DNA of 64,000 bases from IMG/VR virus record IMGVR_UViG_3300021255_000152, positions 74,029 through 138,028 of that record, one strand, 5' to 3'. The notes under the pieces are model-generated. The model saw only the letters and a program-made list of their open reading frames with translations. It was not told the DNA's origin and made no database searches. Source of the stretch: a virus (taxonomy: Duplodnaviria > Caudoviricetes). This document shows positions 8,453 to 63,958 of the stretch, piece after piece (within the stretch, counting starts at the first letter, position 1; each line of letters opens with the position of its first letter). The position numbers and the translations under genes were made by a program.

Positions 8453-8523
8453 AGGGGTATCGTTCAACGGTAGGACAGTGGTCTTCAACACCATATATGT
8501 GGGTTCGAATCCTACTACCCCTG
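8453..8523 (+). tRNA. Opal-suppressor tRNA-Trp(UCA)
   Basis: Cloverleaf AGGGGTA/TACCCCT, discriminator G, anticodon arm GTGGT-CTTCAAC-ACCAT, T-loop TTCGAAT, short variable loop. Body closely resembles Firmicute tRNA-Trp. Confidence 0.93.
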
Positions 8524-8541
8524 CTATTATTGAGGTGTTTT

Positions 8542-50672: not shown

Positions 50673-50761
50673 ATTTATATTATAACAAAAAAAATAAAGG
50701 AGAGCAACACATGCTCTCCTTTATACAGGCTCCCAAGAGAGGAGCAATGGATATCAACGCG

Positions 50762-50842
50762 TCCAGTCAGCGGGACTTGAACCCGCACGTCTCTCGACAA
50801 CACCCCCTCAAGATGCCGTGTCTGCCATTCCACCATGACCGG
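50762..50842 (-). tRNA. tRNA-Leu(GAG)
   Basis: Cloverleaf, loop TTGAGGG, long variable arm. Confidence 0.88.
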
Positions 50843-50846
50843 AGAG

Positions 50847-50919
50847 TGCTGGTGACAGGAGTCGAACCTGCAACCTACTGATTACAAGTCAGTTGCGCTG
50901 CCAATTGCGCCACACCAGC
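50847..50919 (-). tRNA. tRNA-Thr(UGU)
   Basis: ACTGA-CTTGTAA-TCAGT. Confidence 0.93.
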
Positions 50920-51055
50920 AGAATCTAACCTTTGAAAATATTCACAACCTTTAAGCCATTCAAGTTCATGCGGATTACATCTTTGAGAACCGCATTTTTC
51001 ACAATATTTTTCTTGAAACTCTTCAAAAGTCATAGTTATACCTCCAAGGTTATAG

Positions 51056-51142
51056 TGGGTAGGGAGGGACTCGAACCCCCAAGTTTACCGCGTGGGACCT
51101 GATTTACAGTCAGGCGACTTCACCAATTTGTCACACCTACCC
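51056..51142 (-). tRNA. tRNA-Tyr(GUA)
   Basis: CCTGA-CTGTAAA-TCAGG, long variable arm. Confidence 0.88.
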
Positions 51143-51143
51143 A

Positions 51144-51356
51144 TTACTTTGTGTTGTTGTTTGAAAATATTCCACGGAATACCATACAAACAACTGTGAA
51201 TAAAATTACAAGGGGCCAACTAAATGCTACTGTCCATCCTGCTATTGAAGTGATACCAACTGTCTTAAGACCCCAACAAATAATCCATACAAGACCTGCG
51301 TTTATTAACAATGCAATAATAAGTCCAACTAACGCTCCAATAATAACTGCTACCAT
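51144..51356 (-). CDS. Small two-TM membrane protein
   Basis: AGGAGGT RBS; hydrophobic. Confidence 0.7.
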   Translation of the reverse strand: MVAVIIGALVGLIIALLINAGLVWIICWGLKTVGITSIAGWTVAFSWPLVILFTVVCMVFRGIFSNNNTK

Positions 51357-51375
51357 TTTAACCTCCTTGTAATAG

Positions 51376-51449
51376 TGACACTACGGGGATTCGAACCCGC
51401 GATTATCCGATTGAGAGCCGGATTTCCTGAACCATTAGAAGATAGTGCC
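51376..51449 (-). tRNA. tRNA-Glu(CUC)
   Basis: TCCGG-CTCTCAA-TCGGA. Confidence 0.9.
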
Positions 51450-51454
51450 ATAGG

Positions 51455-51604
51455 ATAACCCACTGGGATTCGCACCCAGATATTCTGCCTTTCACAGCAG
51501 ACCCACTGCGTACCAAGAGTCGTTTGCAACCGAGTTCTTGATAGGTATGTCCTCCTAACTGCTTGCAAGTCCAGTTAGCCATACAGACCTTATGGTATGG
51601 GTTA
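51455..51604 (-). ncRNA. tRNA-like RNA with a large structured insertion replacing the D arm
   Basis: Acceptor TAACCCA/TGGGTTA, T arm CTGGG-TGCGAAT-CCCAG, TCTGC/GCAGA stem, extra hairpins. Confidence 0.65.
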
Positions 51605-51606
51605 AG

Positions 51607-51681
51607 TCATGCCGACGGGACTCGAACCCGCGAATCCTGCCTTGAAAGGGCAGTGTGTTAAACCAGTTTCACCACGACATG
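51607..51681 (-). tRNA. tRNA-Glu(UUC)
   Basis: CTGCC-CTTTCAA-GGCAG. Confidence 0.9.
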
Positions 51682-51687
51682 AAATAG

Positions 51688-51801
51688 TGGAGGAGGAAGG
51701 GATTTGAACCCCCAAAGTCTAGAATTCTATTAACTAGTATTTTAGCGCGCTACCGACACCAGTGTTACGCACTGGCTCCGTTACCATTTGGATACTCCTC
51801 C
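51688..51801 (-). tRNA. Atypical tRNA (Tyr-like, GUA) with ~45-nt variable region and non-canonical anticodon loop
   Basis: GGAGGAG/CTCCTCC-A, D arm, CCAGT-GCGTAAC-ACTGG (no U33), T loop TTCAAAT. Confidence 0.6.
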
Positions 51802-51808
51802 ATATAAG

Positions 51809-51881
51809 CGGTCCCGACGGGTGATGCTCCCGCTATCTCTACCTTGACAGGGTAGCGACTCTGCTGACTGTCCCCGAGACC
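51809..51881 (-). tRNA. tRNA-Asp(GUC) with atypical D and T loops
   Basis: CTACC-CTGTCAA-GGTAG; T loop AGCATCA; G73. Confidence 0.78.
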
Positions 51882-51953
51882 ATATTTTAAGCTAGGATCC
51901 AACCATCCATTATGTCACCCTACCGAACGCTAACATGTGACTACCTAGCTTAG

Positions 51954-52028
51954 TGGGAATGAGAGGACTTGAACCTCCGACCTCTCGCTTATCAGGCGAA
52001 CGCTCTAGACCAGCTGAGCTACACTCCC
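51954..52028 (-). tRNA. tRNA-Ile(GAU)
   Basis: Loop CTGATAA, canonical cloverleaf. Confidence 0.93.
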
Positions 52029-52038
52029 AGAAAATGGA

Positions 52039-52212
52039 TTATCGAGGTACAACCTCGTAATCCATCGCATCTACGCGAAGATCTTCCAAACAGGTATAAT
52101 CTTCATTAACGTAGTCTGCCATATCTTGGTCAGCAAAGGGGGTTTCTCCCAGCATTGACTGCATAAGCCCCGCTGACATAATCAAGTCCCTTGAATTAAA
52201 ACGTTCTCTCAT
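52039..52212 (-). CDS. Hypothetical acidic protein, 57 aa (below track cutoff)
   Basis: AGGGG RBS; MRERFNSRDLIM...EVVPR*. Confidence 0.5.
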   Translation of the reverse strand: MRERFNSRDLIMSAGLMQSMLGETPFADQDMADYVNEDYTCLEDLRVDAMDYEVVPR

Positions 52213-52282
52213 ATTTCATTCCCCTTTCCTTACCTTACATATATATTATAACATTTATTTTTTATTTTTTCAAATAATTAGT

Positions 52283-52501
52283 ATAACCAGGTGTGCAGTT
52301 GGACGCCTCGAACAGGGCTGTTAAGAATCTATGGCTCGATATTTGGTTCCTCAATCACACGCATTTCTTGCGGATTCAACGAATAGTAACTGGGGTAGCT
52401 TACGCGGATTTTCACCGCCGCCCTCTGTGGTGTCTCCCCACTGCTTTCCGCAGGACGAACTTTATTTTCTTCACGGCTTTTAATGCTTGCCTACTGGTTA
52501 T
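52283..52501 (-). ncRNA. Candidate structured ncRNA (~220 nt)
   Basis: Terminal pairing ATAACCAG/CTGGTTAT, internal GC-rich hairpins, no credible ORF. Confidence 0.5.
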
Positions 52502-52681
52502 GAAAAGATCTAAGGCAGAGTGACGACTCTCCTAAATTCAACTGCGTCTCCTACTTATGTAGTAATTGAATTACCTTAGACCTTGCAAGGCACAACCCTT
52601 GCGCGCAGGTGACTTTACCTGGAGTTCCCCGACTTTTTTAAGTCCAGTATAACAACATACACTATCGGGTGGTGGAACTAA

Positions 52682-53188
52682 TTATTTTTCAAGTCTAATA
52701 ACCTGATCTGGTTCAACTTCTGTAGAGAAATATACGCCATCAAGGCCGATAAGATCTCTAGCGACATCCTGATAAAGTACGGATGTAATGCCCTGTTCTG
52801 TACCAAGGTCATCGCTGAAATACTGAGCAACGTCCTTCTTAAATACTACGTGAGTAATAGGCTGACTGTAGAGTCCCTGGAATTCAGAGCAGTGAGAGAA
52901 AATTGGATTGCCCTTAAAAGCAGTGGAATAAAGAGTTGCTTTACCTGCTCCTGTAAGATTATTACCAGGCACAACAGTAATTTTAAGGGAAACTGCCCCA
53001 AAAATTTGTTCGCAAGGAAGAAGCTGAGAAATTGCTTCTGCCTTTTCAAGATCTTCTACATAGAGCTTAACCTCAAGATTGTCCTCGTCAAAGACGATGT
53101 TAATTCCTGGATCCTTGCCAAAAAGAACACGAAGTTCTCTGACATAGATATACCAAGGAGCGGATAACTTTAACTTATTCTGGTCCAT
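52682..53188 (-). CDS. Hypothetical phage protein
   Basis: AGGAG RBS; LSAPW..LFGKDP..VVFKKDVAQYFSDDL. Confidence 0.75.
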   Translation of the reverse strand: MDQNKLKLSAPWYIYVRELRVLFGKDPGINIVFDEDNLEVKLYVEDLEKAEAISQLLPCEQIFGAVSLKITVVPGNNLTGAGKATLYSTAFKGNPIFSHCSEFQGLYSQPITHVVFKKDVAQYFSDDLGTEQGITSVLYQDVARDLIGLDGVYFSTEVEPDQVIRLEK

Positions 53189-53211
53189 TTTTAATATCTC
53201 CTTTTTAAAAG

Positions 53212-53285
53212 TCTCCTCTGAGGGATTCGAACCCCCGGCACCTACGTTCGTAGCGTAGTGCTCTATTCCACTGAGCTAAGAGGAG
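53212..53285 (-). tRNA. tRNA-Arg(ACG)
   Basis: CTACG-CTACGAA-CGTAG. Confidence 0.92.
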
Positions 53286-53515
53286 ATAAGTACGCCGAAC
53301 ATCCTATTGAATCACTTTCATCTTGCGGGATTTCTATTGTTTCTTTGCCGGCAGAGTTTGAACCATTAACCGTGGCGTAGGGTAATTTAATAACGACCAG
53401 TAGATAAACTTCCCATAAAGCTACTGAATGATAGTTCTACTTCCTTTCGACAGCGCTATCAACCGAGAAGATCTTCCCAGGCATATCCGCGGTTTATGTT
53501 TCTCCTGAGAATGAG

Positions 53516-53588
53516 TCGCCCCAGTAGGACTTGAACCTACGACCCTCTGCTTGTAAGGCAGATGCTCTCCCAACTGAGCTATGGGACG
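53516..53588 (-). tRNA. tRNA-Val(UAC)
   Basis: TCTGC-CTTACAA-GCAGA. Confidence 0.93.
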
Positions 53589-53590
53589 AT

Positions 53591-53857
53591 TTAATCGTTT
53601 TCTAAATGTAAATCAGACTTTTTCATTATAGTACCATCTGCATTATAGGCTACTGTTATTCCACCTCTATATGTGGCAATAAACATAAGATAAACAACTT
53701 CTGTATCTTCATCAATAGCGTAATAAAAATGTTCATTATCTGATGAATATACAGTCATATTAGTTGGACCTTTTCCGTTATAAGCAGTATGTGGATTACT
53801 ACATCCTGTCAATAATAAAGCAGATAACACTATTTTTATTAAATCTGAAAATTTCAT
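53591..53857 (-). CDS. Small lipoprotein
   Basis: Lipobox LLLTGC; D..T.V.Y..GGIT..NADG. Confidence 0.72.
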   Translation of the reverse strand: MKFSDLIKIVLSALLLTGCSNPHTAYNGKGPTNMTVYSSDNEHFYYAIDEDTEVVYLMFIATYRGGITVAYNADGTIMKKSDLHLEND

Positions 53858-53877
53858 TTAGCATCTCTCCTTTTAAA

Positions 53878-53952
53878 TAGCAGAAGTGAGATTCGAACTC
53901 ACAACCAATAGGGTATGAATCTATTGCTCTAACCGATTGGAGCTATTCTGCT
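53878..53952 (-). tRNA. tRNA with CAU anticodon (probably elongator Met)
   Basis: Loop TTCATAC; AGCAGAA/TTCTGCT. Confidence 0.85.
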
Positions 53953-53957
53953 AAAAG

Positions 53958-54029
53958 CACCCGAGGAAGGATTCGAACCCTCATAGCTGGTTTTGGAGAC
54001 CAGAGTACTAGCCGTTGTACGACTCGGAT
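53958..54029 (-). tRNA. tRNA-Trp(CCA)
   Basis: CTGGT-CTCCAAA-ACCAG, G73. Confidence 0.9.
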
Positions 54030-54038
54030 ATATATATC

Positions 54039-54216
54039 TGCCTACCCCCAACTCCAACAGACTGCATCAGTTGCCCGAAAATTAACACCGCCATATAGAC
54101 GGGCTGATGTTCCCAATCACAGTTTCTTTTGCCACTAAGCTCGACTCAGCCAGGCTGCGAAACCTGTTTCACTGAAAGCATCATTTCGCACCAATGCTTC
54201 AGAGCCGGCGTAGGCA
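54039..54216 (-). ncRNA. Candidate structured ncRNA between tRNA-Leu and tRNA-Trp
   Basis: Closing stem TGCCTAC/GTAGGCA plus internal hairpins (CATCAG/CTGATG, AAGCAT/ATGCTT). Confidence 0.55.
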
Positions 54217-54218
54217 AG

Positions 54219-54292
54219 TAGGGAAGGTGGGATTTGAACCCACAGAACTCTGATTTTGAGTCAGATACGTATGCCAATTCCGTCACTCCCCC
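54219..54292 (-). tRNA. tRNA-Leu(CAA), short variable loop
   Basis: TCTGA-CTCAAAA-TCAGA. Confidence 0.85.
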
Positions 54293-54389
54293 ATATAAAC
54301 TCAGTAGAGCAGACATAATCTGTTTCAGGGGCTGGTAGCGCTACTTCCAGCGAAGTGGTTGCTGAGTTTATTAAGTTATATAACTTTAG

Positions 54390-54462
54390 GTTGACCTATG
54401 GGATTCGAACCCATGACATTTGCGGCCACAACGCAACGCTCTACCACTGAACTAAGGCCAAC
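54390..54462 (-). tRNA. tRNA-His(GUG)
   Basis: Loop TTGTGGC; G-1:C73. Confidence 0.92.
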
Positions 54463-54470
54463 ATAAGTCG

Positions 54471-54547
54471 AGGTACCGATCAGATTTGAACTGACGAAAT
54501 ACGGAGGTTGCAGCTCCGGGGCTTAAACCAGACTTGCCAACGGTACC
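54471..54547 (-). tRNA. tRNA-Cys(GCA)
   Basis: CGGAG-CTGCAAC-CTCCG; U73. Confidence 0.9.
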
Positions 54548-54606
54548 CATAACTTTTCCTTACAATATTATTATATAATATTTTTTTTATTTTTTCAAAT
54601 TAGACA

Positions 54607-54798
54607 CTACAAACCTTGTTGCTTTTTGTATTCATCTTCTAACATCCAGATAAAATTATTCTTACAATCTACATCAAATTGAAGAGTTACTCGTCTGAAT
54701 TCATCTAAATCATGACTACGAAGTTCTTCATAACCGTGATCAACATCATACTTCAAATCTTCAATTAACTTATCAATCTTAATAGTTCTTTCTTCCAT
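54607..54798 (-). CDS. Hypothetical protein
   Basis: AGGAG RBS, 63 aa. Confidence 0.55.
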   Translation of the reverse strand: MEERTIKIDKLIEDLKYDVDHGYEELRSHDLDEFRRVTLQFDVDCKNNFIWMLEDEYKKQQGL

Positions 54799-54807
54799 AA
54801 TATCTCC

Positions 54808-55659
54808 TTAGAAAATCAAGCTACCTTTATCATCCCAACGGCTGTATAAATGTCCATTAGGACGAAGAATAGCATATTTCATTTCATCAATACTGTCTTT
54901 GCTCATGCAATTAGTATCAACAACAGTAGAAATACCATCTACTGAATACTGAATGAATCCATAAGGAAGACGCGCAATCGCAACGCCCTTGTCGCAAACA
55001 TAGTCGATAATTTCTTTGAACTTTGCTTCTGGATATTCATGTTTTTCTACCCAGCTAGCTTCTTTACCATTTCCACTCTTGTAAATTTTTCTAAAAGTTA
55101 ATTGATCTACATTGTAAAAATCAGCCCAAGCAAAGAAGAAATCAGGATCAAATTTAATAAAAGCATCTGTTAAATTAAGACAAACACGTACATTTAAATG
55201 ACAATGTTTCGCTTCATCAATAAGCTGTGCAATAGTCATAATTCGTTTATTCTGTGGGGTATGAGTAATATCCCAATTCTCAATAGGGTAGAAAGAATTT
55301 ACAGATAATGCTAATGTAGTAACTCCTGCTTCAGCTAAATTCCGAATATCAATAGGGGTTAAACCAGAGCCAGTAGTCTGAATTGCAATGTTATAGAAAG
55401 GCTTGCGCATCAGACGATTAGCTTTAAGCATTTTATAAATGAAAGGTAGATTCTGCTGCGGTTCAGCAGTTCCAGTAATAATCATAGAATTACAGCCCTC
55501 TTCGCGCACGAACTCCATTTTATCAATATATCTTTCTGGAATGGTGTCAAAATTAAGATTATTACCATAATCTTCATTATGCATTCTCGATACACAAAAA
55601 GCACAATGGTTCCAGCATATTCCTGTTGGCACTACAATGGATAATGACTGTATATTCAT
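54808..55659 (-). CDS. Stand-alone radical SAM protein (no SPASM domain)
   Basis: CWNHCAFC, ITGTAEP, QTTG. Confidence 0.85.
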   Translation of the reverse strand: MNIQSLSIVVPTGICWNHCAFCVSRMHNEDYGNNLNFDTIPERYIDKMEFVREEGCNSMIITGTAEPQQNLPFIYKMLKANRLMRKPFYNIAIQTTGSGLTPIDIRNLAEAGVTTLALSVNSFYPIENWDITHTPQNKRIMTIAQLIDEAKHCHLNVRVCLNLTDAFIKFDPDFFFAWADFYNVDQLTFRKIYKSGNGKEASWVEKHEYPEAKFKEIIDYVCDKGVAIARLPYGFIQYSVDGISTVVDTNCMSKDSIDEMKYAILRPNGHLYSRWDDKGSLIF

Positions 55660-55733
55660 AATTACTATATCCTTTCCTTTATATAATAATTATATCATTT
55701 ATTTTTTAATTTTTCAATAAAAAGAAGAAGAAG

Positions 55734-57596
55734 CTAAGCTTCTTCTTCCTCTTCTTCTTTTTTCTTGTTCTGTGTTAATCCAGCTAAGACTACGCTAATT
55801 GCAAATATTAGTACCATAGGAATAGTCCATTTATCTACAAGAACCATTGGCAAACTCATATCCTCAGTGAGGATAAACATCATTACTGCAAGTACCGCAG
55901 GTAATAAGCCAAGAATCTTGGTGAGTTTATGTTTGCCTTCATCTTCTTCTTTTGGATGTTCTTCTTCATCTTCATATGTTTTCTTGAAGATGAAAGTTAT
56001 TAACATTCCAAGAGCAATGAGTACAGAACCAACAGTCATAATTAAATTGATTAATGCCCAGGTTCCTCTTTGAGGCATAACTAAAGGAGCAGCCATATCT
56101 TCAATAGTAACTTCTCTAATTAATTCAGGTTCTTCTTCCTCAATATCATCTACTACTATTACAGCAGGTTCCTCTTCAGCTTCTGCGGCAATAACAAATG
56201 GAGTGAAAATCTCTGTAATTACTTCTGGAATAATTTCAGGGATTGGAATGATAATTGGTTCTGGTTCAGGCTCTACTGTTGGAGTAAGCTCTGGATCAGG
56301 ACTTGGAGCAGGTGTAGGATCTGGGGATGGACTTGGTTCTGGAGAAGGAGTTGGATCTGGACTTGAAGTAGGTTCAGGATCTGTTTTCTCTGGAATATCA
56401 ATTAAATCCATTTTATCTAATTTATCAAGATAATTGCCTTTTGTTGGTGCGGTTGGATTTTCCATATAATCAGGTGTATATTCCTGATATTCTGGTTCAT
56501 ATTCTACAGGTTCATCCCAAATTCTTTGGAAAATATATGTGAATATTGCCAAAATATTTTTTGGTTTTGTACCATCTATTGTGCGTTCAACTACAGTCTC
56601 CTCTTTAATCTTACCATCTTCATAATAATGCTGAGTTCTCTCTTCTGGAGTAAATTGAACGACATATGTTTCTCCACCCTTACCTGTTTGGGTATCAAAA
56701 TCATAATTCCATCCATAATCTAAAGTGTTAGAGTTTGATGCAATTATGCTACCTGGAGTCCAAACACCCTGAGTGTAGTCTTCAACATTTCGCACAAATC
56801 TTGCATCATAAGCTTGCATTTTATACTGCTTGCCATTGTGTCGAATAGTTGTATCTTTATAAGTTTCAGCTTCACTCTTAATAGTTGCGGTGTCGTTTAA
56901 ATCTATCTTCGCAACTTCCCATTCTGCAAAAATCATTGCATCTTTTGCTTCTTGATTGATTTCAAAGCTATCTTCTGTTACTTTATCAAATAAAGTAGGT
57001 GGAGCATATTCTGAATCTAAATATAAATGTAGATTCATAATTGAAACTTCTTCACCAGATTTTTCTGTGGCTTCTTCAACTTCGATTGTTTTTAAATCTT
57101 CAGTTGTATCTGACCAATCTGTTGGTAATTCTTCGGCATCGGTTGTGTAATTCTCAATGACCGTACCAGGAGCATTCTCTTCTACTTTAGCTTCGACAGC
57201 TGCAATTTCTGCTTGAGACTCTTCAACCTTTACATCTTCTTCGGCATTGTGCGCTTCTACCTCAGCGACTTTTTCATCTTCTTCTGCGTTGTGAGCAGCA
57301 ACTTCTTCTACTTGTTGTTCATATTCTTGAACTTGAGTTTCATATACCTCATCTACTTGCTGATTATATTCATCAACATAGGTATTATATTCATCAACTT
57401 GAGTATTATACTCATTAATTAATTCATTAGAACCTTCTGGATCGGATTCATCAATAACTGGTTGTTGTGGAATATCCATTTCAACAATTTCTTCTGTTGG
57501 AGTTTCTTCCTCTTCAGGTCTGTCATCTGCATATGTGTGCGCAGTAGAAAGTGGTAAAGCTAATGCCAAAGTCAATAAGAATATTTTCTTTTTCAT
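55734..57596 (-). CDS. Acidic cell-surface protein with signal peptide, Pro-rich stalk and C-terminal 3-TM anchor
   Basis: MKKKIFLLTLALAL signal; (P-[TS]-P-[SD]) repeats; WALINLI...TM-TM-TM. Confidence 0.8.
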   Translation of the reverse strand: MKKKIFLLTLALALPLSTAHTYADDRPEEEETPTEEIVEMDIPQQPVIDESDPEGSNELINEYNTQVDEYNTYVDEYNQQVDEVYETQVQEYEQQVEEVAAHNAEEDEKVAEVEAHNAEEDVKVEESQAEIAAVEAKVEENAPGTVIENYTTDAEELPTDWSDTTEDLKTIEVEEATEKSGEEVSIMNLHLYLDSEYAPPTLFDKVTEDSFEINQEAKDAMIFAEWEVAKIDLNDTATIKSEAETYKDTTIRHNGKQYKMQAYDARFVRNVEDYTQGVWTPGSIIASNSNTLDYGWNYDFDTQTGKGGETYVVQFTPEERTQHYYEDGKIKEETVVERTIDGTKPKNILAIFTYIFQRIWDEPVEYEPEYQEYTPDYMENPTAPTKGNYLDKLDKMDLIDIPEKTDPEPTSSPDPTPSPEPSPSPDPTPAPSPDPELTPTVEPEPEPIIIPIPEIIPEVITEIFTPFVIAAEAEEEPAVIVVDDIEEEEPELIREVTIEDMAAPLVMPQRGTWALINLIMTVGSVLIALGMLITFIFKKTYEDEEEHPKEEDEGKHKLTKILGLLPAVLAVMMFILTEDMSLPMVLVDKWTIPMVLIFAISVVLAGLTQNKKKEEEEEEA

Positions 57597-57713
57597 ACTT
57601 TGCCTCCTATAAGTTCATAAACATAAAGAAACAATGCGCTTGTTCCTTTGTGTATTAAAACTACAAGGAGAGTTTTCTACATATATTATAACATTTATTT
57701 TTTATTTTAACAA

Positions 57714-58103
57714 TTAATCAGTTAAACTACAGGATACAATTTCTAATAATGGATTATCGCTATATACAACTAAATCTCCACCGCCAATATTATCTGTGGG
57801 GTTTTGGTAATAAGATAATTTAATTTTTAATGTATTAGTATTATCTCCAGATATTAAAGTGGCTCCATTCATATAGCAACCAATATAATGAATTGGACTA
57901 TTAAAACTAATAGTTAAATATTGTGTTGTTCGTGTATGATCAGCACGATGTTGTGCATTAACTTGAATACGGAAATCATTTCTACCTGTTTCTGGACGTT
58001 GATGAATTCGTGCAGTGACTGTATAACATCCACTACCAGAAGAAGCATAAATACCTTCTGCCATATCATCTAATTGTAAGGCAATTGGCTTAATATATGC
58101 CAT
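57714..58103 (-). CDS. Small beta-rich protein with RiPP-leader-like N-terminus
   Basis: AAAGGAG RBS; MAYIKP...AEGIYASSG then a beta-sandwich-like region. Confidence 0.65.
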   Translation of the reverse strand: MAYIKPIALQLDDMAEGIYASSGSGCYTVTARIHQRPETGRNDFRIQVNAQHRADHTRTTQYLTISFNSPIHYIGCYMNGATLISGDNTNTLKIKLSYYQNPTDNIGGGDLVVYSDNPLLEIVSCSLTD

Positions 58104-58147
58104 ATGTTTAATCTCCTTTCTGTTGAAAAAGGCAGTAAGCCAATGGC

Positions 58148-58432
58148 TTACCACCCTTTATGTGGAAGTATCTTTAAGTCAAATCCTGTTTCTTCTAATG
58201 AAGATTGCATACCCTCTAGCTTTTTGTAGTCAGATAAAGAAGGGCCATATAGTTTTGTTTTTGCGGAACAGAGAGGACAAGAGCAATGTATCTTTCCTTT
58301 ATTTAATCTGTTCCTCTGGCCTCCATGAGTCCAATCATCATAAGCGTCATACCAACCCTGCTTGAGTTTGCGCTTTTTACGTTCGATCGCCATTTGCGTT
58401 AAATGACGTCTTTCTGCCTTAGGTCTCTGCAT
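58148..58432 (-). CDS. Basic hypothetical protein with CSCPLC motif
   Basis: GGAGGT RBS. Confidence 0.7.
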   Translation of the reverse strand: MQRPKAERRHLTQMAIERKKRKLKQGWYDAYDDWTHGGQRNRLNKGKIHCSCPLCSAKTKLYGPSLSDYKKLEGMQSSLEETGFDLKILPHKGW

Positions 58433-58561
58433 ATAAATACCTCCAAGAATTGGGCTGGGCCTCCGTTATGTGGATGCTACACCATATCTCTTGCTTGTGG
58501 CAAGTATTCTCAGCTTTGAACTATCACGTTCTTTAAAATTCCCATTTCCTCCCAATAAAAA

Positions 58562-58634
58562 TGGACACTCCGGGTGTCGAACCCAGTCCTAGGGATTTTC
58601 AGTCCCCCGCAATAACCGTATCTGCCAAGTGTCC
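58562..58634 (-). tRNA. tRNA-Phe(GAA)
   Basis: GGGGA-CTGAAAA-TCCCT. Confidence 0.88.
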
Positions 58635-58716
58635 GCGAAGAGGATTCTCAATCGAGAATCCTCGATCTGCCCTTTGGGCCATCTGTTTAACCGTAGGCCC
58701 GCACATCCTACGATAA

Positions 58717-59026
58717 TGGACCTGAGGGGAATCGAACCCCTGTCCAAGAATATCTACTGTCCTCGACATCTATACTTACAGCTTCCCTATTCAAAGTAAT
58801 TAAAGATGCGTGAATAGGACCGCAATCCTTAATTTGGTTTGAAACTAAAGTGCTTTAATAATTACGACTAAAGAGCTAAAGCTAACTGATTAGAAGGTGC
58901 AAAGAAATTCTTGATCTTTGCGATAGTGTTTTTAACAAAATTTGCGTTTAAATTTAATTTTAGCGTAAGTCGCTACCTTGCTGCTGTCTTGGCACTCAAT
59001 AAACCTGTCGAAACCTTTACAAGCCC
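58717..59026 (-). ncRNA. ssrA: tmRNA; tag (A)ANFVKNTIAKIKNFFAPSNQLALAL*
   Basis: 5' GGGCTTGTAAAGGTTTCGAC, 3' GAC-AGGGG-TTCGATT-CCCCT-CAGGTCC-A with G3:U70. Resume GCA at 58945; tag ends LALAL-TAG at 58868. Confidence 0.9.
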
Positions 59027-59146
59027 ATAAGCAGGGCAGCATTCAATTAAGTGCTTGCCCAGAAACGCCTGTACCCTTGGTACAGGACATGTATCGCCGT
59101 AGCGATATAAGTGACTGTTCCCACACCTTAGGTGGGTCAGCTATAT

Positions 59147-59247
59147 ATACGGGCAGAGATTTGCACTCTGCATGGCACTGTGAGAATTTGTTCGTGCCGA
59201 TTCTACCTCACACTTGTAGTCTATGTCTACCTATTCCATCACCGCAA
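59147..59247 (-). ncRNA. tRNA mimic with Leu-type D arm and kissing-loop/pseudoknot centre
   Basis: ATG-GAATAGGTAGA-CAT D arm; GCAGAG-TGCAAAT-CTCTGC; interleaved TGTGAG/CTCACA and GGCAC/GTGCC. Confidence 0.65.
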
Positions 59248-59250
59248 TTA

Positions 59251-59405
59251 AATTACCCTTCCTCACATAATATTCGTATTGCCGTAGGCCCTTAGGCTCC
59301 GCCGATGGGCCGGAGGCTATAACGGCTCGTAAAACTGGTTCTTCAAAGATTGACGACTCGCCAATCCTGCATAATTTAATATGCTTAGTCTGAGGAAAGT
59401 CAATT
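59251..59405 (-). ncRNA. Candidate structured ncRNA
   Basis: Closing stem TTCCTCA/TGAGGAA with flanking AATT pairs; internal hairpins GCATA/TATGC, GATTG/CAATC, GCCGT/ACGGC, CTCCG/CGGAG. Confidence 0.5.
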
Positions 59406-59420
59406 CCACCGATTTCTTTA

Positions 59421-59542
59421 TGGTATTGAGGGTAGGGATTTGCACCCTGCATGAAAGAGTTTTGAGACCTCGCGTGCGACAATCATGTATGCATCCATGC
59501 TCTTTCATCACGCCCAGCGTCTACCTATTCCGCCACCTCAAT
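59421..59542 (-). ncRNA. tRNA mimic with encoded CCA and a pseudoknot in place of the anticodon arm
   Basis: ATTGAGG/CCTCAAT-A-CCA; GCG-GAATAGGTAGA-CGC; T loop TGCAAAT; GCGTG/CACGC crossing ATGAAAGAG/CTCTTTCAT. Confidence 0.72.
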
Positions 59543-59554
59543 TAATTAATATAC

Positions 59555-59914
59555 CTATTCCTTATTTCCTTTATATGGATTTGGCAACGGCATCCATGCT
59601 GTAACTGCATAATCAACATGGAAACCAGCCATGGTAAATTCTCCAAACTTTTGTTTATCACAATCAAACCATTCAGAATAACTTCTATTTCCATCGGAAA
59701 CATTAAACAATCTGTTATTCCTTATACACTCGTCGTGGTTTGGCAATCTTTCACTTACTGAAATCCATTGTGGTTCTGTACTAACTAATTGCCCCTGTTT
59801 TACACCTATGCGAAAACCTTTTTCAAAAGCCGCAGGAATAGATGTGTTTATATCACATTCGCTCTTAAAATAATTCTCTATGGCAATTTTCATTTTTCTT
59901 TCACTAATTGGCAT
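59555..59914 (-). CDS. DUF551-type phage protein
   Basis: WISVSERLP...VTAWMPLPNPY. Confidence 0.75.
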   Translation of the reverse strand: MPISERKMKIAIENYFKSECDINTSIPAAFEKGFRIGVKQGQLVSTEPQWISVSERLPNHDECIRNNRLFNVSDGNRSYSEWFDCDKQKFGEFTMAGFHVDYAVTAWMPLPNPYKGNKE

Positions 59915-59916
59915 TT

Positions 59917-60450
59917 TTACCTCGTATATTTTAAACCTTTAACACATTGATTTATAAGGCTACTTTTTGCTTCTGGACATGTTCCTTCTTGGTCCATGCC
60001 TCCTTCCCTATAATACCATGTCATATGCTTATCTTCGTAGATTTGAAATTCTAAATATTTGCCATTTTGGTCATATTCTAATTGAATAGAACCATCTGCT
60101 ACTGGAAAAATCTCTGGTATAATATCTAATTCAGAAATCAGATTTTTTACAAAATAAATCAATTTATCAGAGAAAGGTTCTGCGTCATAACCATTCCAGC
60201 CTTTTTTATAGACATGAAAGCTATCTAACTTCATCCACGCATCCCAAAGCTTTTCAGCTTCTTTGCTTGTAAATGTAATATCATTTTTTGAAAGACGCAC
60301 ATATGTTCTTAATTCATCAAAAACATTAATTCCAACTGGAACAGAATCTCTTTTCAAAATTTCCTGATTTATTTTTTGCTCTTCTTCTGTCATGCAACGT
60401 TGCTCGCCAAACAATTCTTGAGCATGTTCAATCCAATCTATTTTTACCAT
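59917..60450 (-). CDS. Hypothetical protein
   Basis: GWNGYDAEP..PEIFPVADGSIQLEY. Confidence 0.65.
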   Translation of the reverse strand: MVKIDWIEHAQELFGEQRCMTEEEQKINQEILKRDSVPVGINVFDELRTYVRLSKNDITFTSKEAEKLWDAWMKLDSFHVYKKGWNGYDAEPFSDKLIYFVKNLISELDIIPEIFPVADGSIQLEYDQNGKYLEFQIYEDKHMTWYYREGGMDQEGTCPEAKSSLINQCVKGLKYTR

Positions 60451-60782
60451 AATTCCCACCAAAATTCTGCGTTTTTGTTATAGGTATAATTTGTTAAATT
60501 CTCTGATTTCATTGCCCTACGATTTTTTCTATGGCAATTTGTTTTAATCCATTTGCTTAATTTGACCGGACGCCAATTACGTTTTAAATAAGAATTCTCA
60601 GTAGGAAAATTTTTATGAGTATTTTCATCCCACTCATAATCACTCCAGCCGACCGGCCAAGGAAACCATCTATCTCCTCCAATAGAATAAAGGTAATTCA
60701 TTTTATCCTTATTCTTCTTTTTGCGGAAATAGCGATTACTTTTTACTTTCCCAGAATAAGGGTCTCTATACTTGTGAGCCAT
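60444..60782 (-). CDS. Basic hypothetical protein
   Basis: AGGAGGT RBS; K/R-rich, ends FWWELW. Confidence 0.7.
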   Translation of the reverse strand: MAHKYRDPYSGKVKSNRYFRKKKNKDKMNYLYSIGGDRWFPWPVGWSDYEWDENTHKNFPTENSYLKRNWRPVKLSKWIKTNCHRKNRRAMKSENLTNYTYNKNAEFWWELW

Positions 60783-60804
60783 ATAAATACCTCCTATCTG
60801 ATAG

Positions 60805-60876
60805 TCCGGGCGAGAGGAATTGAACCTCCACTCTTGCCCTTATAAGGAGCCTGCTTTACCATTAAGCTACGCCCGG
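60805..60876 (-). tRNA. tRNA-Ile(UAU)
   Basis: Loop CTTATAA; canonical D and T arms. Confidence 0.88.
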
Positions 60877-61032
60877 AAATTTTAATCCTTCCATTTAATT
60901 GAAAGCACTTTTGGATCAAAACGTTCTAACTCTTCTTCAAGAAGTTCTTTTATTAGTTTATCTTCATGATCGAAGTTATCAGTGTAATCAATTAATCTAA
61001 TTGTAACTTCAAATTCAGTCATAAAAATCTCC

Positions 61033-61287
61033 TTAAAAATTCGAGTTACTTAAATCATATGGATCTTCATCACCCGTCCAAATGACATCTAAATCACACA
61101 TCCATTTTTCTTCTGGACGATAATCATTAAACACTTCTTGATATAAAAGATCTCCAACGTTATTCCAATCTTCTTCTGTTACTTCTTCATCAGATTCTAA
61201 ATACGCTCTTAATCTATCACACAAATATTTTCGGTCTGATGGAATAACTTCTAACATCTGTAATATAACATCATGTAAATCTCGCAT
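61033..61287 (-). CDS. Acidic hypothetical protein
   Basis: GAGGT RBS. Confidence 0.6.
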   Translation of the reverse strand: MRDLHDVILQMLEVIPSDRKYLCDRLRAYLESDEEVTEEDWNNVGDLLYQEVFNDYRPEEKWMCDLDVIWTGDEDPYDLSNSNF

Positions 61288-61304
61288 ACAAATACCTCAC
61301 TAAA

Positions 61305-61376
61305 TCGGCCCGATGGGGATTGAACCCATGACCCACGGATTAAAAGTCCGCTGCTCTACCGCTGAGCTACGAGCCG
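61305..61376 (-). tRNA. tRNA-Lys(UUU)
   Basis: GCGGA-CTTTTAA-TCCGT. Confidence 0.93.
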
Positions 61377-61380
61377 ATAG

Positions 61381-61452
61381 TACCCTCGCTGGGAATCGAA
61401 CCCAGATTATAACCTTAGAAGGGTCATGTACTATCCTTTATACGACAAGGGC
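61381..61452 (-). tRNA. tRNA-Arg(UCU)
   Basis: TGACC-CTTCTAA-GGTTA. Confidence 0.9.
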
Positions 61453-61457
61453 ATAAG

Positions 61458-61556
61458 ATACTGCCAGTATGGAATTTAACCATATCTTCCGGCACTCTTT
61501 TCCAATGGTTAGTTGGCAGTGGCGCCAGTATGCGACCTTACATCATGTAACAGTAT
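61458..61556 (-). ncRNA. tRNA-like RNA with elongated anticodon arm
   Basis: ATACTGTTA/TGGCAGTAT; TATGG-TTAAATT-CCATA; CTGGCGC/GTGCCGG extended by CCAA-CTAACCA-TTGG. Confidence 0.55.
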
Positions 61557-61591
61557 TCTATACTACTGAGTGACCAGCTTTTCGTATATAG

Positions 61592-61664
61592 TCCTACCGC
61601 AGGGACTTGAACCCTGAACCCTTTGATTAAGAGTCAAATGCTCTGCCAGTTGAGCTACGGAAGG
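61592..61664 (-). tRNA. tRNA-Lys(CUU)
   Basis: TTTGA-CTCTTAA-TCAAA. Confidence 0.92.
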
Positions 61665-61681
61665 ATATAGAAAAGTAGAAA

Positions 61682-62095
61682 CTACTTTTCTTCTGCGTAC
61701 CAATCCCAACCTAAATGAAGGTTGAAACTTTTGCTGTCATCGCCCCAGCGGAAGACATATTCAATATTTACGTCATCGCCAGTAGCCATTGTGAGATTTG
61801 GATCGGCTTTCATTGCGGCAAGGACACCCTGTGTGTCATGAGCAGCTTTATAAATATACTTGTCGTAAGTTGCCTTATTCTTACATTTAATAAGATAATC
61901 AGCGGAACGGATTCCAAATGTACGAATATCCAATCCAATCCAGTAAATTTCTCCAGGTCCCTGGTCAAATCCATGCACATTACACCACATCATTGCTTTA
62001 TTTGGCCAAGTAACCGTTTCGTCATAAATGTGATTAACCCAATGAGTTTCCTCTGTTGATTTAAATAACTTCTTTTTAAACCATTTTAGACACAT
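61682..62095 (-). CDS. Hypothetical protein (start corrected to exclude tRNA-Ala)
   Basis: GGAGGA RBS before ATG 62095. Confidence 0.65.
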   Translation of the reverse strand: MCLKWFKKKLFKSTEETHWVNHIYDETVTWPNKAMMWCNVHGFDQGPGEIYWIGLDIRTFGIRSADYLIKCKNKATYDKYIYKAAHDTQGVLAAMKADPNLTMATGDDVNIEYVFRWGDDSKSFNLHLGWDWYAEEK

Positions 62096-62121
62096 AATCT
62101 TATCCTCCGCTTTAATCAGAG

Positions 62122-62194
62122 TGGAACCGAAGGGGATCGAACCCTCAACCCCCTGCTTGCAAAGCAGGTGCGCTCCCGGTTGCGCCACGGCCCC
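62122..62194 (-). tRNA. tRNA-Ala(UGC)
   Basis: G3:U70; loop TTTGCAA. Confidence 0.94.
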
Positions 62195-62269
62195 ATATAT
62201 AGGAAGTTACCCCGTTTTTATTAAAGTGAGCTTTCTGCAAAACTTCCCCAAATGACCGACCTCACTCAG

Positions 62270-62350
62270 CGCCGCACACAGGATTCGAACCTGCAAACCT
62301 TTACGGTTAATGGTTTTCTAGACCACTCCCTCACCACCCGGACATGCGGC
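62270..62350 (-). tRNA. tRNA-Ser(AGA)
   Basis: GTGGT-CTAGAAA-ACCAT, variable arm AACC/GGTT, G73, minimal D arm. Confidence 0.78.
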
Positions 62351-62353
62351 ATA

Positions 62354-62427
62354 TGGCAGCCCCACCTCGATTCGAACGAGGAACAACAGGTTCAGAGCCT
62401 GGTATGTTGCCGTTACACTATGGGGCT
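62354..62427 (-). tRNA. tRNA-Gln(CUG), CCA encoded
   Basis: Loop CTCTGAA. Confidence 0.88.
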
Positions 62428-62498
62428 ATAAGATAAGGATTTCCTTACCTTACATATATATTATATCATATATTTTTTAACTTTTCAAAAATGTTCTT

Positions 62499-63014
62499 TT
62501 ATTTTGAATATCTATCAGCAATATGGCTGGCTGCATAGCTATCTGGTTTGATTTCAAAATCATAACCAAGTGCAGTCATCCATCCACTCAACTCTTGGAT
62601 TAATTCCTTTGTTGGACCATTTTTACCAACATCCATATGAATATGGAAGTGAATATTACTATTCTTATCTGTTAAATCAATACCTTGATCGAAAAATTCA
62701 TCTACTAATAGTTCAGCAGCATCAACAGATATGGCGGTTTCTTCTCTGAGTTTATAATGTAAGCTAGCTATCTTATCATGATACATTCTTTTATAGAAGA
62801 AGATACCACCATTATGCAATCTGTGAACTGTAATAGCAAGAACAAATTGAGTGGTACTATATGTCATTGAGTCCGTTCCAATAGCTATATCGTATTCCTT
62901 ATCAGGTTCCTCCTGGATATACTCTACAATGCGCGCAATAGCTTCTCGTAAAGTTAGAGTTCCTTTTGTTAAGCTATGAACAGACATATCTAAATTTATA
63001 TTAAACTCTGACAT
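62499..63014 (-). CDS. RNase H-like YkuK/DUF458 family protein
   Basis: IGTDS, GGIFFY, L..ET..S, IHMDVG..GPT, IKPDSYAAS.IAD. Confidence 0.82.
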   Translation of the reverse strand: MSEFNINLDMSVHSLTKGTLTLREAIARIVEYIQEEPDKEYDIAIGTDSMTYSTTQFVLAITVHRLHNGGIFFYKRMYHDKIASLHYKLREETAISVDAAELLVDEFFDQGIDLTDKNSNIHFHIHMDVGKNGPTKELIQELSGWMTALGYDFEIKPDSYAASHIADRYSK

Positions 63015-63096
63015 TTTATACCTCCTATAATTAGTGCAAATCCTGCCTGTTTCATTATTTAAATTTGTTCTTAAAAAAGGCCGATATTCGGCCTAG

Positions 63097-63169
63097 CAGC
63101 CCCAGCATGGTTCGAACATGCGCATCAAGGATTCAAAGTCCTCCGCCTTACCTACTTGGCTATGGGGCC
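63097..63169 (-). tRNA. tRNA-Gln(UUG)
   Basis: GAGGA-CTTTGAA-TCCTT. Confidence 0.9.
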
Positions 63170-63178
63170 ATAAAAGAG

Positions 63179-63661
63179 TTATTTAATAACTCTTTGTGTA
63201 ACAAATAAACCAATAATCATTGTGATAGTGTCGATCATGAATGCTGTGAAACTCTTCACAATTTTTACCGCAAATGGAATCTGATACAAGAAGCACTCAA
63301 TAAGAGTTTTCGCACATAGAATACCAAGAGCGACAAAGATTACGGTTACAATCATTTTCACCCAAATGTTCTTAGTCTTTTGGAACAAAATTCCGCACCC
63401 AAGTCCAATGATGAAATTACCTACGAACCAACCGATGCTGAATCCATATGGGGAAAATAGAATACTTTCAATTCCACATCCTACTGCGCCAATGAAGGCA
63501 CCCCAGGGGCCAAACATTTCACATCCAATAGCAAGGGCAATATATCCTAAATCAAGAGAAATTGCGCCAATGAATGGAATTTTCATGAAGGCACTTAGCA
63601 CACAATATAGTGCTGTGAGAATTGCGATTCCTGCGATTTTTTTTGTTGTCAGTTTATTCAT
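63179..63661 (-). CDS. ECF transporter S-component
   Basis: TKKIA.IAILTAL, LDLG, FGPWGAFIGAVG; 5-6 TM. Confidence 0.8.
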   Translation of the reverse strand: MNKLTTKKIAGIAILTALYCVLSAFMKIPFIGAISLDLGYIALAIGCEMFGPWGAFIGAVGCGIESILFSPYGFSIGWFVGNFIIGLGCGILFQKTKNIWVKMIVTVIFVALGILCAKTLIECFLYQIPFAVKIVKSFTAFMIDTITMIIGLFVTQRVIK

Positions 63662-63884
63662 AATCTATACCTCCTAATGTTCATGAATAAACCAAAAACA
63701 CTAGAAGATACGAGTATTTTTGGTTGACAGTTTAACGACATGATTTGCGACAAATACAAACTTCTTGGTCGAAAAAATACGATCACTCCTTGCTTCCTTT
63801 ATTTTATAACGCGACATTTTCCAAGCGTGATCGTGAGACGAATGTTAATGCCGCGGGCATTTTTCTCCTCACTGAAAGGAGTAG

Positions 63885-63958
63885 TCGATAGGGTGGGACT
63901 CGAACCCACAAACCACTGTTTCTAAGACAGTGTGCTATGCCAATTCGCGTACCTACCG
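63885..63958 (-). tRNA. tRNA-Leu(UAG), short variable loop
   Basis: ACTGT-CTTAGAA-ACAGT. Confidence 0.85.

Follow-up and report, generated by a model that had tools for sequence, protein, structure and literature searches.

Stable RNAs resembling transfer RNA (tRNA) have been known in phage tRNA clusters since the 1970s, as in the case of species 1 and 2 of phage T4 and RNA1 and RNA2 of phage T5. The present work deals with two tRNA-like elements, referred to as elem1 and elem2, in a virus belonging to Caudoviricetes (Duplodnaviria; IMG/VR record IMGVR_UViG_3300021255_000152). The window, that is, the whole stretch of DNA that was analysed, comprises 64,000 nucleotides (nt; positions 74,029 to 138,028 of the record) and is the end portion of a contig of 138 kb. 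Elem1 and elem2 both genuinely belong to a phage RNA family of wide occurrence. The family, found mostly in phages and prophages of Gram-positive (Bacillota) bacteria, is a sharply delimited and very common form of the stable tRNA-like phage RNA theme, and it is set apart by an invariant noncanonical T loop, one additional pair in the T stem, and the reassortment of its inserts.

T5 RNA1 and RNA2 (NC_005859, T5s03 and T5s06) are labelled misc_RNA in the record and described there as “tRNA-like stable RNA with unknown functions.” Like elem1 and elem2, they are located inside a phage tRNA cluster and combine an acceptor-like closing helix and a T arm with a long insert that is not an anticodon arm. 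T5 RNA1 also has a Leu-type D arm (CCGGAAUUGGUAGACGG), as in the family, and is the best match outside the family to the covariance model R1 described below; its 26.2 bits are far under the 59-78 bits of the members. Moreover, its T loop is the canonical UUCAACU and its host is Gram-negative; the two are alike in layout and only possibly homologous. The T4 species 1 and 2 RNAs (rnaC and rnaD; NC_000866, T4s001 and T4s002) come directly after tRNA genes and have a tRNA-like T arm and closing helix. Unlike the family, rnaC scores 14 bits, with a truncated D region, a canonical UUCGAAU loop, and no Leu-type D loop. Judged by these sequences, T5 RNA1 and T4 rnaC resemble the family in layout and are probably not members of it.

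A comparable design is the engineered “tRNA scaffold,” in which a structured RNA replaces the anticodon arm and the tRNA frame gives processing and stability. Unlike this laboratory construct, the present family is natural and has its own invariant T loop and 6-base pair (bp) T stem. With class II tRNA-Leu (RF00005) it shares the 7-bp acceptor, U8, a 3-bp D stem, a near-identical D loop, the A15-U48 and G19-C56 partners, and a hairpin at the position of the variable arm, whereas it differs in the missing anticodon arm, G55 in place of U55, the 6-bp T stem with its 13-bp stack, and a variable nucleotide 73. YrlA RNAs are another class of non-decoding tRNA mimics, with a conserved D/T-arm elbow; they also occur in phages, and some of them are cut by RNase P and given CCA (PMC4201824). 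They are circularly permuted (T arm, acceptor hairpin, and D arm), carry a Ro60-binding stem, and adjoin the Ro60 gene (PMC4201824). The arm order of the elements described here is instead D-insert-T.

The Two Elements and Their Family

Elem1 and elem2 consist of a constant frame around unrelated cores. An earlier interpretation of the window (the sequence-only reading) had regarded them as anticodon-less tRNA mimics under structural selection, and this is supported by the covariation reported below. The Leu-type D arm attributed to both is confirmed, with a 3-bp stem and an identical loop in the two elements. The 6-bp T stem with its UGCAAAU loop is also found in both, with the qualification that elem2 has one C·A mismatch. 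A 19-mer of this shared T arm occurs twice in the window against 0.04 occurrences expected. As regards the acceptor stem, equally claimed for both, the perfect 7-bp helix of elem2 (ATTGAGG/CCTCAAT), its A73 (59424), and its encoded CCA (59421-59423) can be read directly from the sequence, whereas in elem1 the strands ATTGCGG/CCGTATA pair at 5/7 positions, position 73 is U, and CCA is absent. Elem2 is the sole member seen with an encoded CCA, which is unusual also beside the 23 tRNAs of the phage itself, almost all of which lack CCA.

Neither core contains an anticodon hairpin (5-bp stem and 7-nt loop with U33). Both elements deviate from the canonical T loop (U54-U55-C56) and from the canonical acceptor/T stack of 12 bp (7 + 5), having G55 and 13 bp (7 + 6). 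ARAGORN gives no match at either of them, and neither reaches the gathering score of the Rfam tRNA model (29 bits, RF00005). There is no Rfam match at the gathering threshold or at E values up to 10, and the elements thus do not correspond to a described Rfam family.

Relatives were retrieved by a first scan of IMG/VR with an exact pattern (GGTAGAC, a gap, and the T arm), which matched 51 contigs against a chance expectation far below one. Two near-invariant properties were not imposed by the pattern: UGGCGGAAUA is found 5′ of the match, and the closing helix is variable in sequence yet always paired. In the covariation alignment of 37 sequences (A2), 97.5% of frame cells are paired and 110 cells are doubly changed, and none of 500 shuffles is as good. 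Changes on both sides concern 7/7 closing-helix pairs and 2/3 D-stem pairs, and the frame pairing is unmatched by any shuffled or slid control. This alignment is the basis of the covariance model R1. Such a model had been proposed in the sequence-only reading. Over the whole contig, elem2 and elem1 are the only strong copies (78.2 and 68.8 bits); both are part of the seed alignment, and their scores are partly by construction. Independent members outside the seed reach 59-76 bits, whereas genuine tRNAs score at most 26 bits and the tRNA-Leu genes of this phage about 22 bits.

A second scan covered one genome per prokaryotic species and left the T stem free, with UGCAAAU imposed. It gave 97 matches, 82 of them with a 6-bp T stem and a closing helix. 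Once free, the T stem covaries (GUAAGG/CCUUAC, GCGAGG/CCUCGC, AUACAG/CUGUAU, and others). Among the hosts, Bacillota predominate overwhelmingly (Lactobacillaceae, Bacillaceae, Paenibacillus, Clostridia, and Erysipelotrichaceae), and a few environmental metagenome-assembled genomes (MAGs) of other phyla are also present. A BLAST search against deposited phages returned 154 records (among others, Bacillus 49, Enterococcus 27, Lactobacillus 22, Listeria 20, and Leuconostoc 13), and among the matches listed most have no overlapping annotated feature. Altogether, more than 110 nonredundant members are known from IMG/VR phages, prophages (mostly of Bacillota), and deposited phages, and in the deposited genomes almost all of them are without annotation.

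Since UGCAAAU was imposed in both pattern scans, the check on this loop comes from six phage matches that BLAST had made by the D-arm half only (Grass, Lenus, Satyr, BUCT082, PWc, and KLEB27-1; 59-76 bits). In each of them the T stem has 6 bp and the loop is UGCAAAU, which makes G55 a true family invariant. No description of the family, the motif itself included, was found in Rfam 15 or in the full-text literature searched, a search outside which most subscription journals lie. The features of the two elements and of the adjoining tmRNA (transfer-messenger RNA) region are collected in Table 1.

Table 1: Coordinates of the two elements, their parts, and the adjoining units in the window.
Feature	Position	Strand	Remarks
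elem2, complete gene for an anticodon-less tRNA-Leu-like RNA (122 nt with A73 and CCA)	59421..59542	-	R1 78.2 bits, E 2e-21
elem2 acceptor 5′ strand ATTGAGG	59536..59542	-	pairs with CCTCAAT 59425-59431, 7/7
elem2 U8-G9 and D arm, stem GCG/CGC, 11-nt Leu-type loop GAAUAGGUAGA	59517..59535	-	
elem2 5′ segment UGGGCGUGAU replacing the anticodon arm	59507..59516	-	its GCGUG complements CACGC of the hairpin loop
elem2 insert hairpin, 7-bp GAAAGAG/CUCUUUC around 40 nt	59453..59506	-	class II variable-arm position
elem2 T arm, stem GCAGGG/CCCUAC, loop UGCAAAU	59432..59450	-	6 positions, one C·A mismatch
elem1, second family member, 104 nt	59145..59248	-	R1 68.8 bits, E 1e-18
elem1 U8-G9 and D arm, stem AUG/CAU, loop GAAUAGGUAGA	59223..59241	-	stem compensated versus elem2 GCG/CGC
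elem1 insert	59174..59222	-	24-nt 5′ segment 59199-59222; hairpin GGCAC/GUGCC around 15 nt, 59174-59198
elem1 T arm, 6-bp stem GCAGAG/CUCUGC, loop UGCAAAU	59153..59171	-	
elem2-elem1 spacer, 172 nt	59249..59420	-	minimum free energy (MFE) -52.4 kcal/mol, z -2.84 versus shuffles
elem1-tmRNA spacer, 120 nt, four hairpins in a row	59027..59146	-	MFE -44.1 kcal/mol, z -3.11
phage tmRNA gene	58714..59026	-	Rfam RF00023 74.3 bits; ARAGORN; same direction of transcription as elem1 and elem2

Frame, Core, and Modularity

The anatomy of the family was derived from 110 nonredundant members, on which the following counts rest unless stated otherwise. In the closing helix, pairs 1-6 are formed in 97-99% of members and pair 7 in 90%; beyond it, pairing falls to 55% and then to background. 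With this sharp drop, the acceptor stem has exactly seven pairs, and some pairing of leader and trailer extends past it. With the six pairs of the T stem, the coaxial acceptor/T stack has 13 bp as compared to 12 in ordinary tRNAs. Compensatory changes affect the acceptor, D, and T stems. At position 73, 50% of the members have A and 30% have U; U is found at position 74 in 54% and at position -1 in 49%. The elbow retains the partners U8-A14, A15-U48, G19-C56, and U54-A58.

Constrained folding of all members gives a common plan for the core, which both elem2 and elem1 follow. The core begins with a 5′ segment (median, 16 nt), whose last base is A in 69% of those 55 members in which the terminal hairpin is clear. 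An insert hairpin comes next; its closing pair is usually G-C, its stem is often 7 bp long, and about 23 nt lie within it. In 57/110 members, exactly 2 nt separate this hairpin from the T stem; they are almost always AU, the U of which is the Levitt partner (U48) of A15. Given this U48 and the variable-arm position of the hairpin, the RNA can be understood as a tRNA-Leu in which only a short variable segment is left of the anticodon arm and the variable arm is enlarged. The inserts of the family span 37-95 nt. In elem2, the core between the D and T arms has 66 nt; its insert hairpin agrees with the plan in having a G-C closure and in stopping 2 nt short of the T stem, and the unpaired AU directly follows it (59451-59452). 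The core of elem1 has 51 nt, is unrelated to that of elem2, and has its AU at 59172-59173, after the insert hairpin. An 11-mer of the elem2 insert loop (AGCATGGATGC) recurs about 50 nt upstream of elem2, at 59590-59600 on the minus strand, at the end of the DUF551 gene. This recurrence is probably due to chance, as about 3.5 such 11-mer matches are expected genome-wide.

Crossing helices had been proposed for both elements, formed by the 5′ segment with the loop of the insert hairpin. The complementarity is indeed present in both, GCGUG with CACGC in elem2 and UGUGAG (5′ segment) with CUCACA (hairpin loop) in elem1, but it does not exceed that of shuffled controls. In elem2 the p value is 0.18-0.26; in elem1 it is marginal, at 0.04-0.13 depending on which side is shuffled. 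The notion of “equally knotted cores” is consequently not borne out, and pseudoknots in the two elements are to be regarded as possible. The 9-bp helix of elem2 uses for its outer 2 bp the AU that is unpaired and conserved in the family, and the form consistent with the family is the 7-bp GAAAGAG/CUCUUUC. Across the family, the complementarity between segment and loop is weakly enriched (mean z -0.56, t-test p 2e-5, 10% of members with p ≤ 0.05). In some subfamilies, the 5′ segment forms a hairpin of its own, with a compensated change from CUAG/CUAG to CUGG/CCAG (L010 versus L011). Close relatives of this phage that would suit a covariation test of both cores were not found: the DUF551 neighbours gave two contigs without the element, and the 620-amino acid gene gave no relatives. 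The core of the SPP1 type is too invariant for such a test.

Several members occur in well-known phages. SPP1 carries one at 6647-6756 on the plus strand (L157, NC_004166; 72.3 bits), between the head genes 9 and 11; SBSphiJ has one with 63 bits, members are present also in Listeria and Lactobacillus phages, and no copy was found in SPbeta. The SPP1 member overlaps “gene 10” on the minus strand (6525-6734), for which the record notes a conflict with the conceptual translation; this open reading frame (ORF) may be spurious. Comparison of these phages separates the frame from the insert. SPP1, a siphovirus, and Grass, one of the Herelleviridae, have a near-identical core, and their acceptors differ at 5/7 pairs, all compensated; the core of SPP1 is likewise near-identical in unrelated Nitunavirus phages. 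Conversely, the two Nitunavirus phages Grass and SBSphiJ agree fully in the acceptor and T arms, differ by a compensated change in the D stem, and have unrelated cores, while the Grass-type core is present in SBSphiJ5. From these combinations, frame and insert are separate modules that reassort, presumably by recombination within the constant ends of 20-25 nt. In addition, several copies can be found in one phage, each with a different insert.

Proposed Function and Its Alternatives

The favoured explanation, held at about even confidence and built on sequence comparison, is that these elements are non-decoding chassis RNAs that derive from class II tRNA-Leu, are processed like tRNAs, and carry an exchangeable insert. 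They would be cotranscribed with the tRNA/tmRNA array and excised by host tRNA enzymes, RNase P at the 5′ end and, at the 3′ end, RNase Z or exonucleases together with the CCA-adding enzyme. The tRNA frame would serve as a constant chassis for processing and nuclease resistance and perhaps for the attachment of a host factor with affinity for the elbow or the acceptor, whereas the insert would be the exchangeable, specific part of an RNA acting in trans. In the absence of an anticodon arm, the RNA cannot decode, and G55 and the 13-bp stack make its exclusion from normal charging and from EF-Tu and ribosome traffic likely. Maturation by the tRNA machinery is indicated by the 7-bp acceptor, U at position -1, U at position 74, and the placement among tRNAs. 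In this regard, RNase Z of Bacillus subtilis is stimulated by downstream U residues. The occurrence of several differing copies per phage and the swapping of inserts suggest that the insert carries the specificity, while the invariance of the frame points to one conserved partner or processing pathway. The chassis design is further supported by the common layout with T5 RNA1, a known stable tRNA-like RNA.

A different role follows from the sequence-only reading, in which the elements were seen as chargeable tRNA mimics. A matured, CCA-bearing, and possibly leucylated tRNA-Leu mimic would act as a decoy and titrate a host factor or toxin that binds the acceptor end or the elbow, for example a toxin that cleaves or modifies 3′ ends, while decoding is left undisturbed. 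The premise of this unlikely explanation holds, since charging by leucyl-tRNA synthetase (LeuRS) does not need the anticodon arm (PMC2377443). Elem2, with its perfect acceptor, A73, and encoded CCA, would fit such a role, as would the conserved U8-A14, A15-U48, and G19-C56 partners; the elements are phage-specific and often located in accessory or “moron” regions, such as the oriR/genes 8-10 segment of SPP1, and an invariant frame suggests a single conserved host partner. However, A73 and the G18-U55 pair are critical for LeuRS (PMC2377443), and this pair is unavailable because G occupies position 55 in every member. The discriminator is A in elem2, U in elem1, and A in 50% of the family, CCA is encoded in elem2 alone, and the 13-bp stack is one pair above the norm for LeuRS, EF-Tu, and the CCA-adding enzyme. 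Owing to G55, the longer stack, and A73 in only half of the members, routine leucylation is disfavoured and “chargeable” becomes a doubtful attribute. The decoy role and the modulation of EF-Tu, RelA, or T-boxes, also raised in the sequence-only reading, are speculative. Anticodon nucleases are ruled out as the target, as there is no anticodon loop, and a decoy leaves unexplained why several copies bear different structured inserts and why inserts are swapped. It is still less probable that the elements work purely in cis as “tRNA punctuation,” recruiting RNase P and RNase Z for processing or stability and leaving a functionless excised RNA. Their neighbouring genes are mostly co-oriented with them, and the elements are embedded in operons or RNA arrays, as in phage Lenus, where the member lies between tRNAs. 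The flanking genes are otherwise heterogeneous, with no obligatory protein partner among them, and show a modest enrichment of the late regulators Sigma70_r4, DUF722, and DUF1492 upstream and of HNH/terS downstream. This context and the sharp 7-bp acceptor boundary would suit a cis element; for that purpose, however, any tRNA would do, and the invariant G55, the 6-bp T stem, the Leu-type D loop, and the conserved, reassorting inserts would be left unexplained.

Two further readings were examined and are essentially excluded by structure, covariation, topology, and the missing TROVE gene. It is very improbable that the elements are tRNA-Leu genes either in decay as pseudogenes or split by an intron whose removal would yield a functional tRNA, as their position inside a tRNA array and a D arm near-identical to that of bacterial tRNA-Leu might suggest. 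The family has a conserved architecture with compensatory changes in all frame helices, and ARAGORN finds no tRNA at either element. The inserts are too short for group I introns and match no intron model, and no anticodon stem stands beside them; for this last reason the splicing-out of the core is also unlikely, and the two are not intron-containing tRNAs, in agreement with the sequence-only reading. A bacterial or phage Y RNA that tethers Ro60 is barely credible. YrlA is a non-decoding tRNA mimic that occurs in phages (PMC4201824), but its arm order is permuted and it has a Ro-binding stem. In addition, the contig has no TROVE/Ro60 gene, a gene that was detected in control genomes, and there is no Rfam Y RNA match at E values up to 10.

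Several observations weigh against the chassis explanation itself. Among 20 family loci, no known aptamer or ribozyme overlaps any insert, and the inserts have no Rfam match. As antisense to the phage’s own genome, the longest insert match is one 13-mer, which is at chance level. The base at -1 is A in both elem1 and elem2 versus U in 19/23 of the phage tRNAs, and the 5/7 acceptor of elem1 may make it a poor RNase P substrate. In the 2018 reannotation of SPP1, the segment with the member is an uncharacterised moron region, and no RNA is mentioned (PMC6316719). Finally, a chassis role alone leaves G55 and the exact invariance of the D loop unexplained; the invariance of these two features indicates a specific binding partner.

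A more specific form of the chassis explanation is put forward tentatively and with clearly less than even confidence. The elements could constitute a natural “tRNA-scaffold” system of phages. A G55/13-bp chassis kept away from translation would express, process, and stabilise many small structured RNA cargoes, exchanged among phages through recombination at the constant ends; every cargo would bind its own host factor or defence factor, as an anti-defence aptamer might. If true, the chassis-plus-cargo arrangement would amount to a new type of phage effector, modular and made of RNA, and to the natural counterpart of a tool of RNA engineering. SPP1, SBSphiJ, and Grass infect Bacillus subtilis, and the function is thus directly testable.

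Genomic Setting

The window contains about 24 tRNA genes and one tmRNA gene, nearly all on the minus strand (ARAGORN and Rfam). The statement of the sequence-only reading that the pair lies upstream of a tmRNA is correct; both Rfam and ARAGORN detect the tmRNA, which begins downstream of elem1 after a spacer of 120 nt. Matches to the Rfam tmRNA model are confined to 58714-59026 and do not include elem1 or elem2. The genes of the cluster are all co-directional in the window, and neither promoter-like nor terminator-like sites were found between its units. The spacer between elem2 and elem1 contains neither an ORF nor an Rfam match, and it folds as a multibranch structure with a long closing helix; the spacer between elem1 and the tmRNA has no Rfam match. 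Taken together, the approximately 500 nt upstream of the tmRNA look like one processed array.

The 23 minus-strand tRNA genes at 50761-63958 nearly all lack an encoded CCA, and no gene for a CCA-adding enzyme was found in the contig, which is 79% complete. The flanks of these genes are stereotyped: U at -1 in 19/23 of them is often part of a ..TAT sequence 5′ of the gene, and the 3′ flank is typically N73-C-T-A-T. A further tRNA-shaped sequence without annotation is located at 51688-51801 on the minus strand, between tRNA-Ile and tRNA-Glu. Besides a D arm and the acceptor GGAGGAG/CTCCTCC, it contains a stem CCAGT/ACTGG, the loop of which (GCGTAAC) lacks U33, and about 45 extra nt; ARAGORN and the Rfam tRNA model both miss it. 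Its T arm is the canonical TTCAAAT, which places it outside the UGCAAAU type, and R1 gives it 18 bits.

In other genomes, the members seem to sit in islands of phage noncoding RNAs. On a contig of a Faecalibacterium MAG (L067:1748-1977, minus strand), an abiF RNA motif is located just upstream of the member and a tRNA just downstream, and in L045 (126-215, plus strand) the member there is preceded by a DUF3800-VII RNA at a distance of about 117 nt. Thoeris defence genes are also found as nearest neighbours, with ThsB-TIR upstream of one member and ThsA-Macro downstream of one member.

The only plus-strand tRNA of the window (8453-8524, 72 nt) has the anticodon UCA; ARAGORN reports it as tRNA-SeC, and the Rfam tRNA model gives it 62 bits. 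This tRNA may be an opal suppressor, by which TGA would be read as sense in some phage genes.

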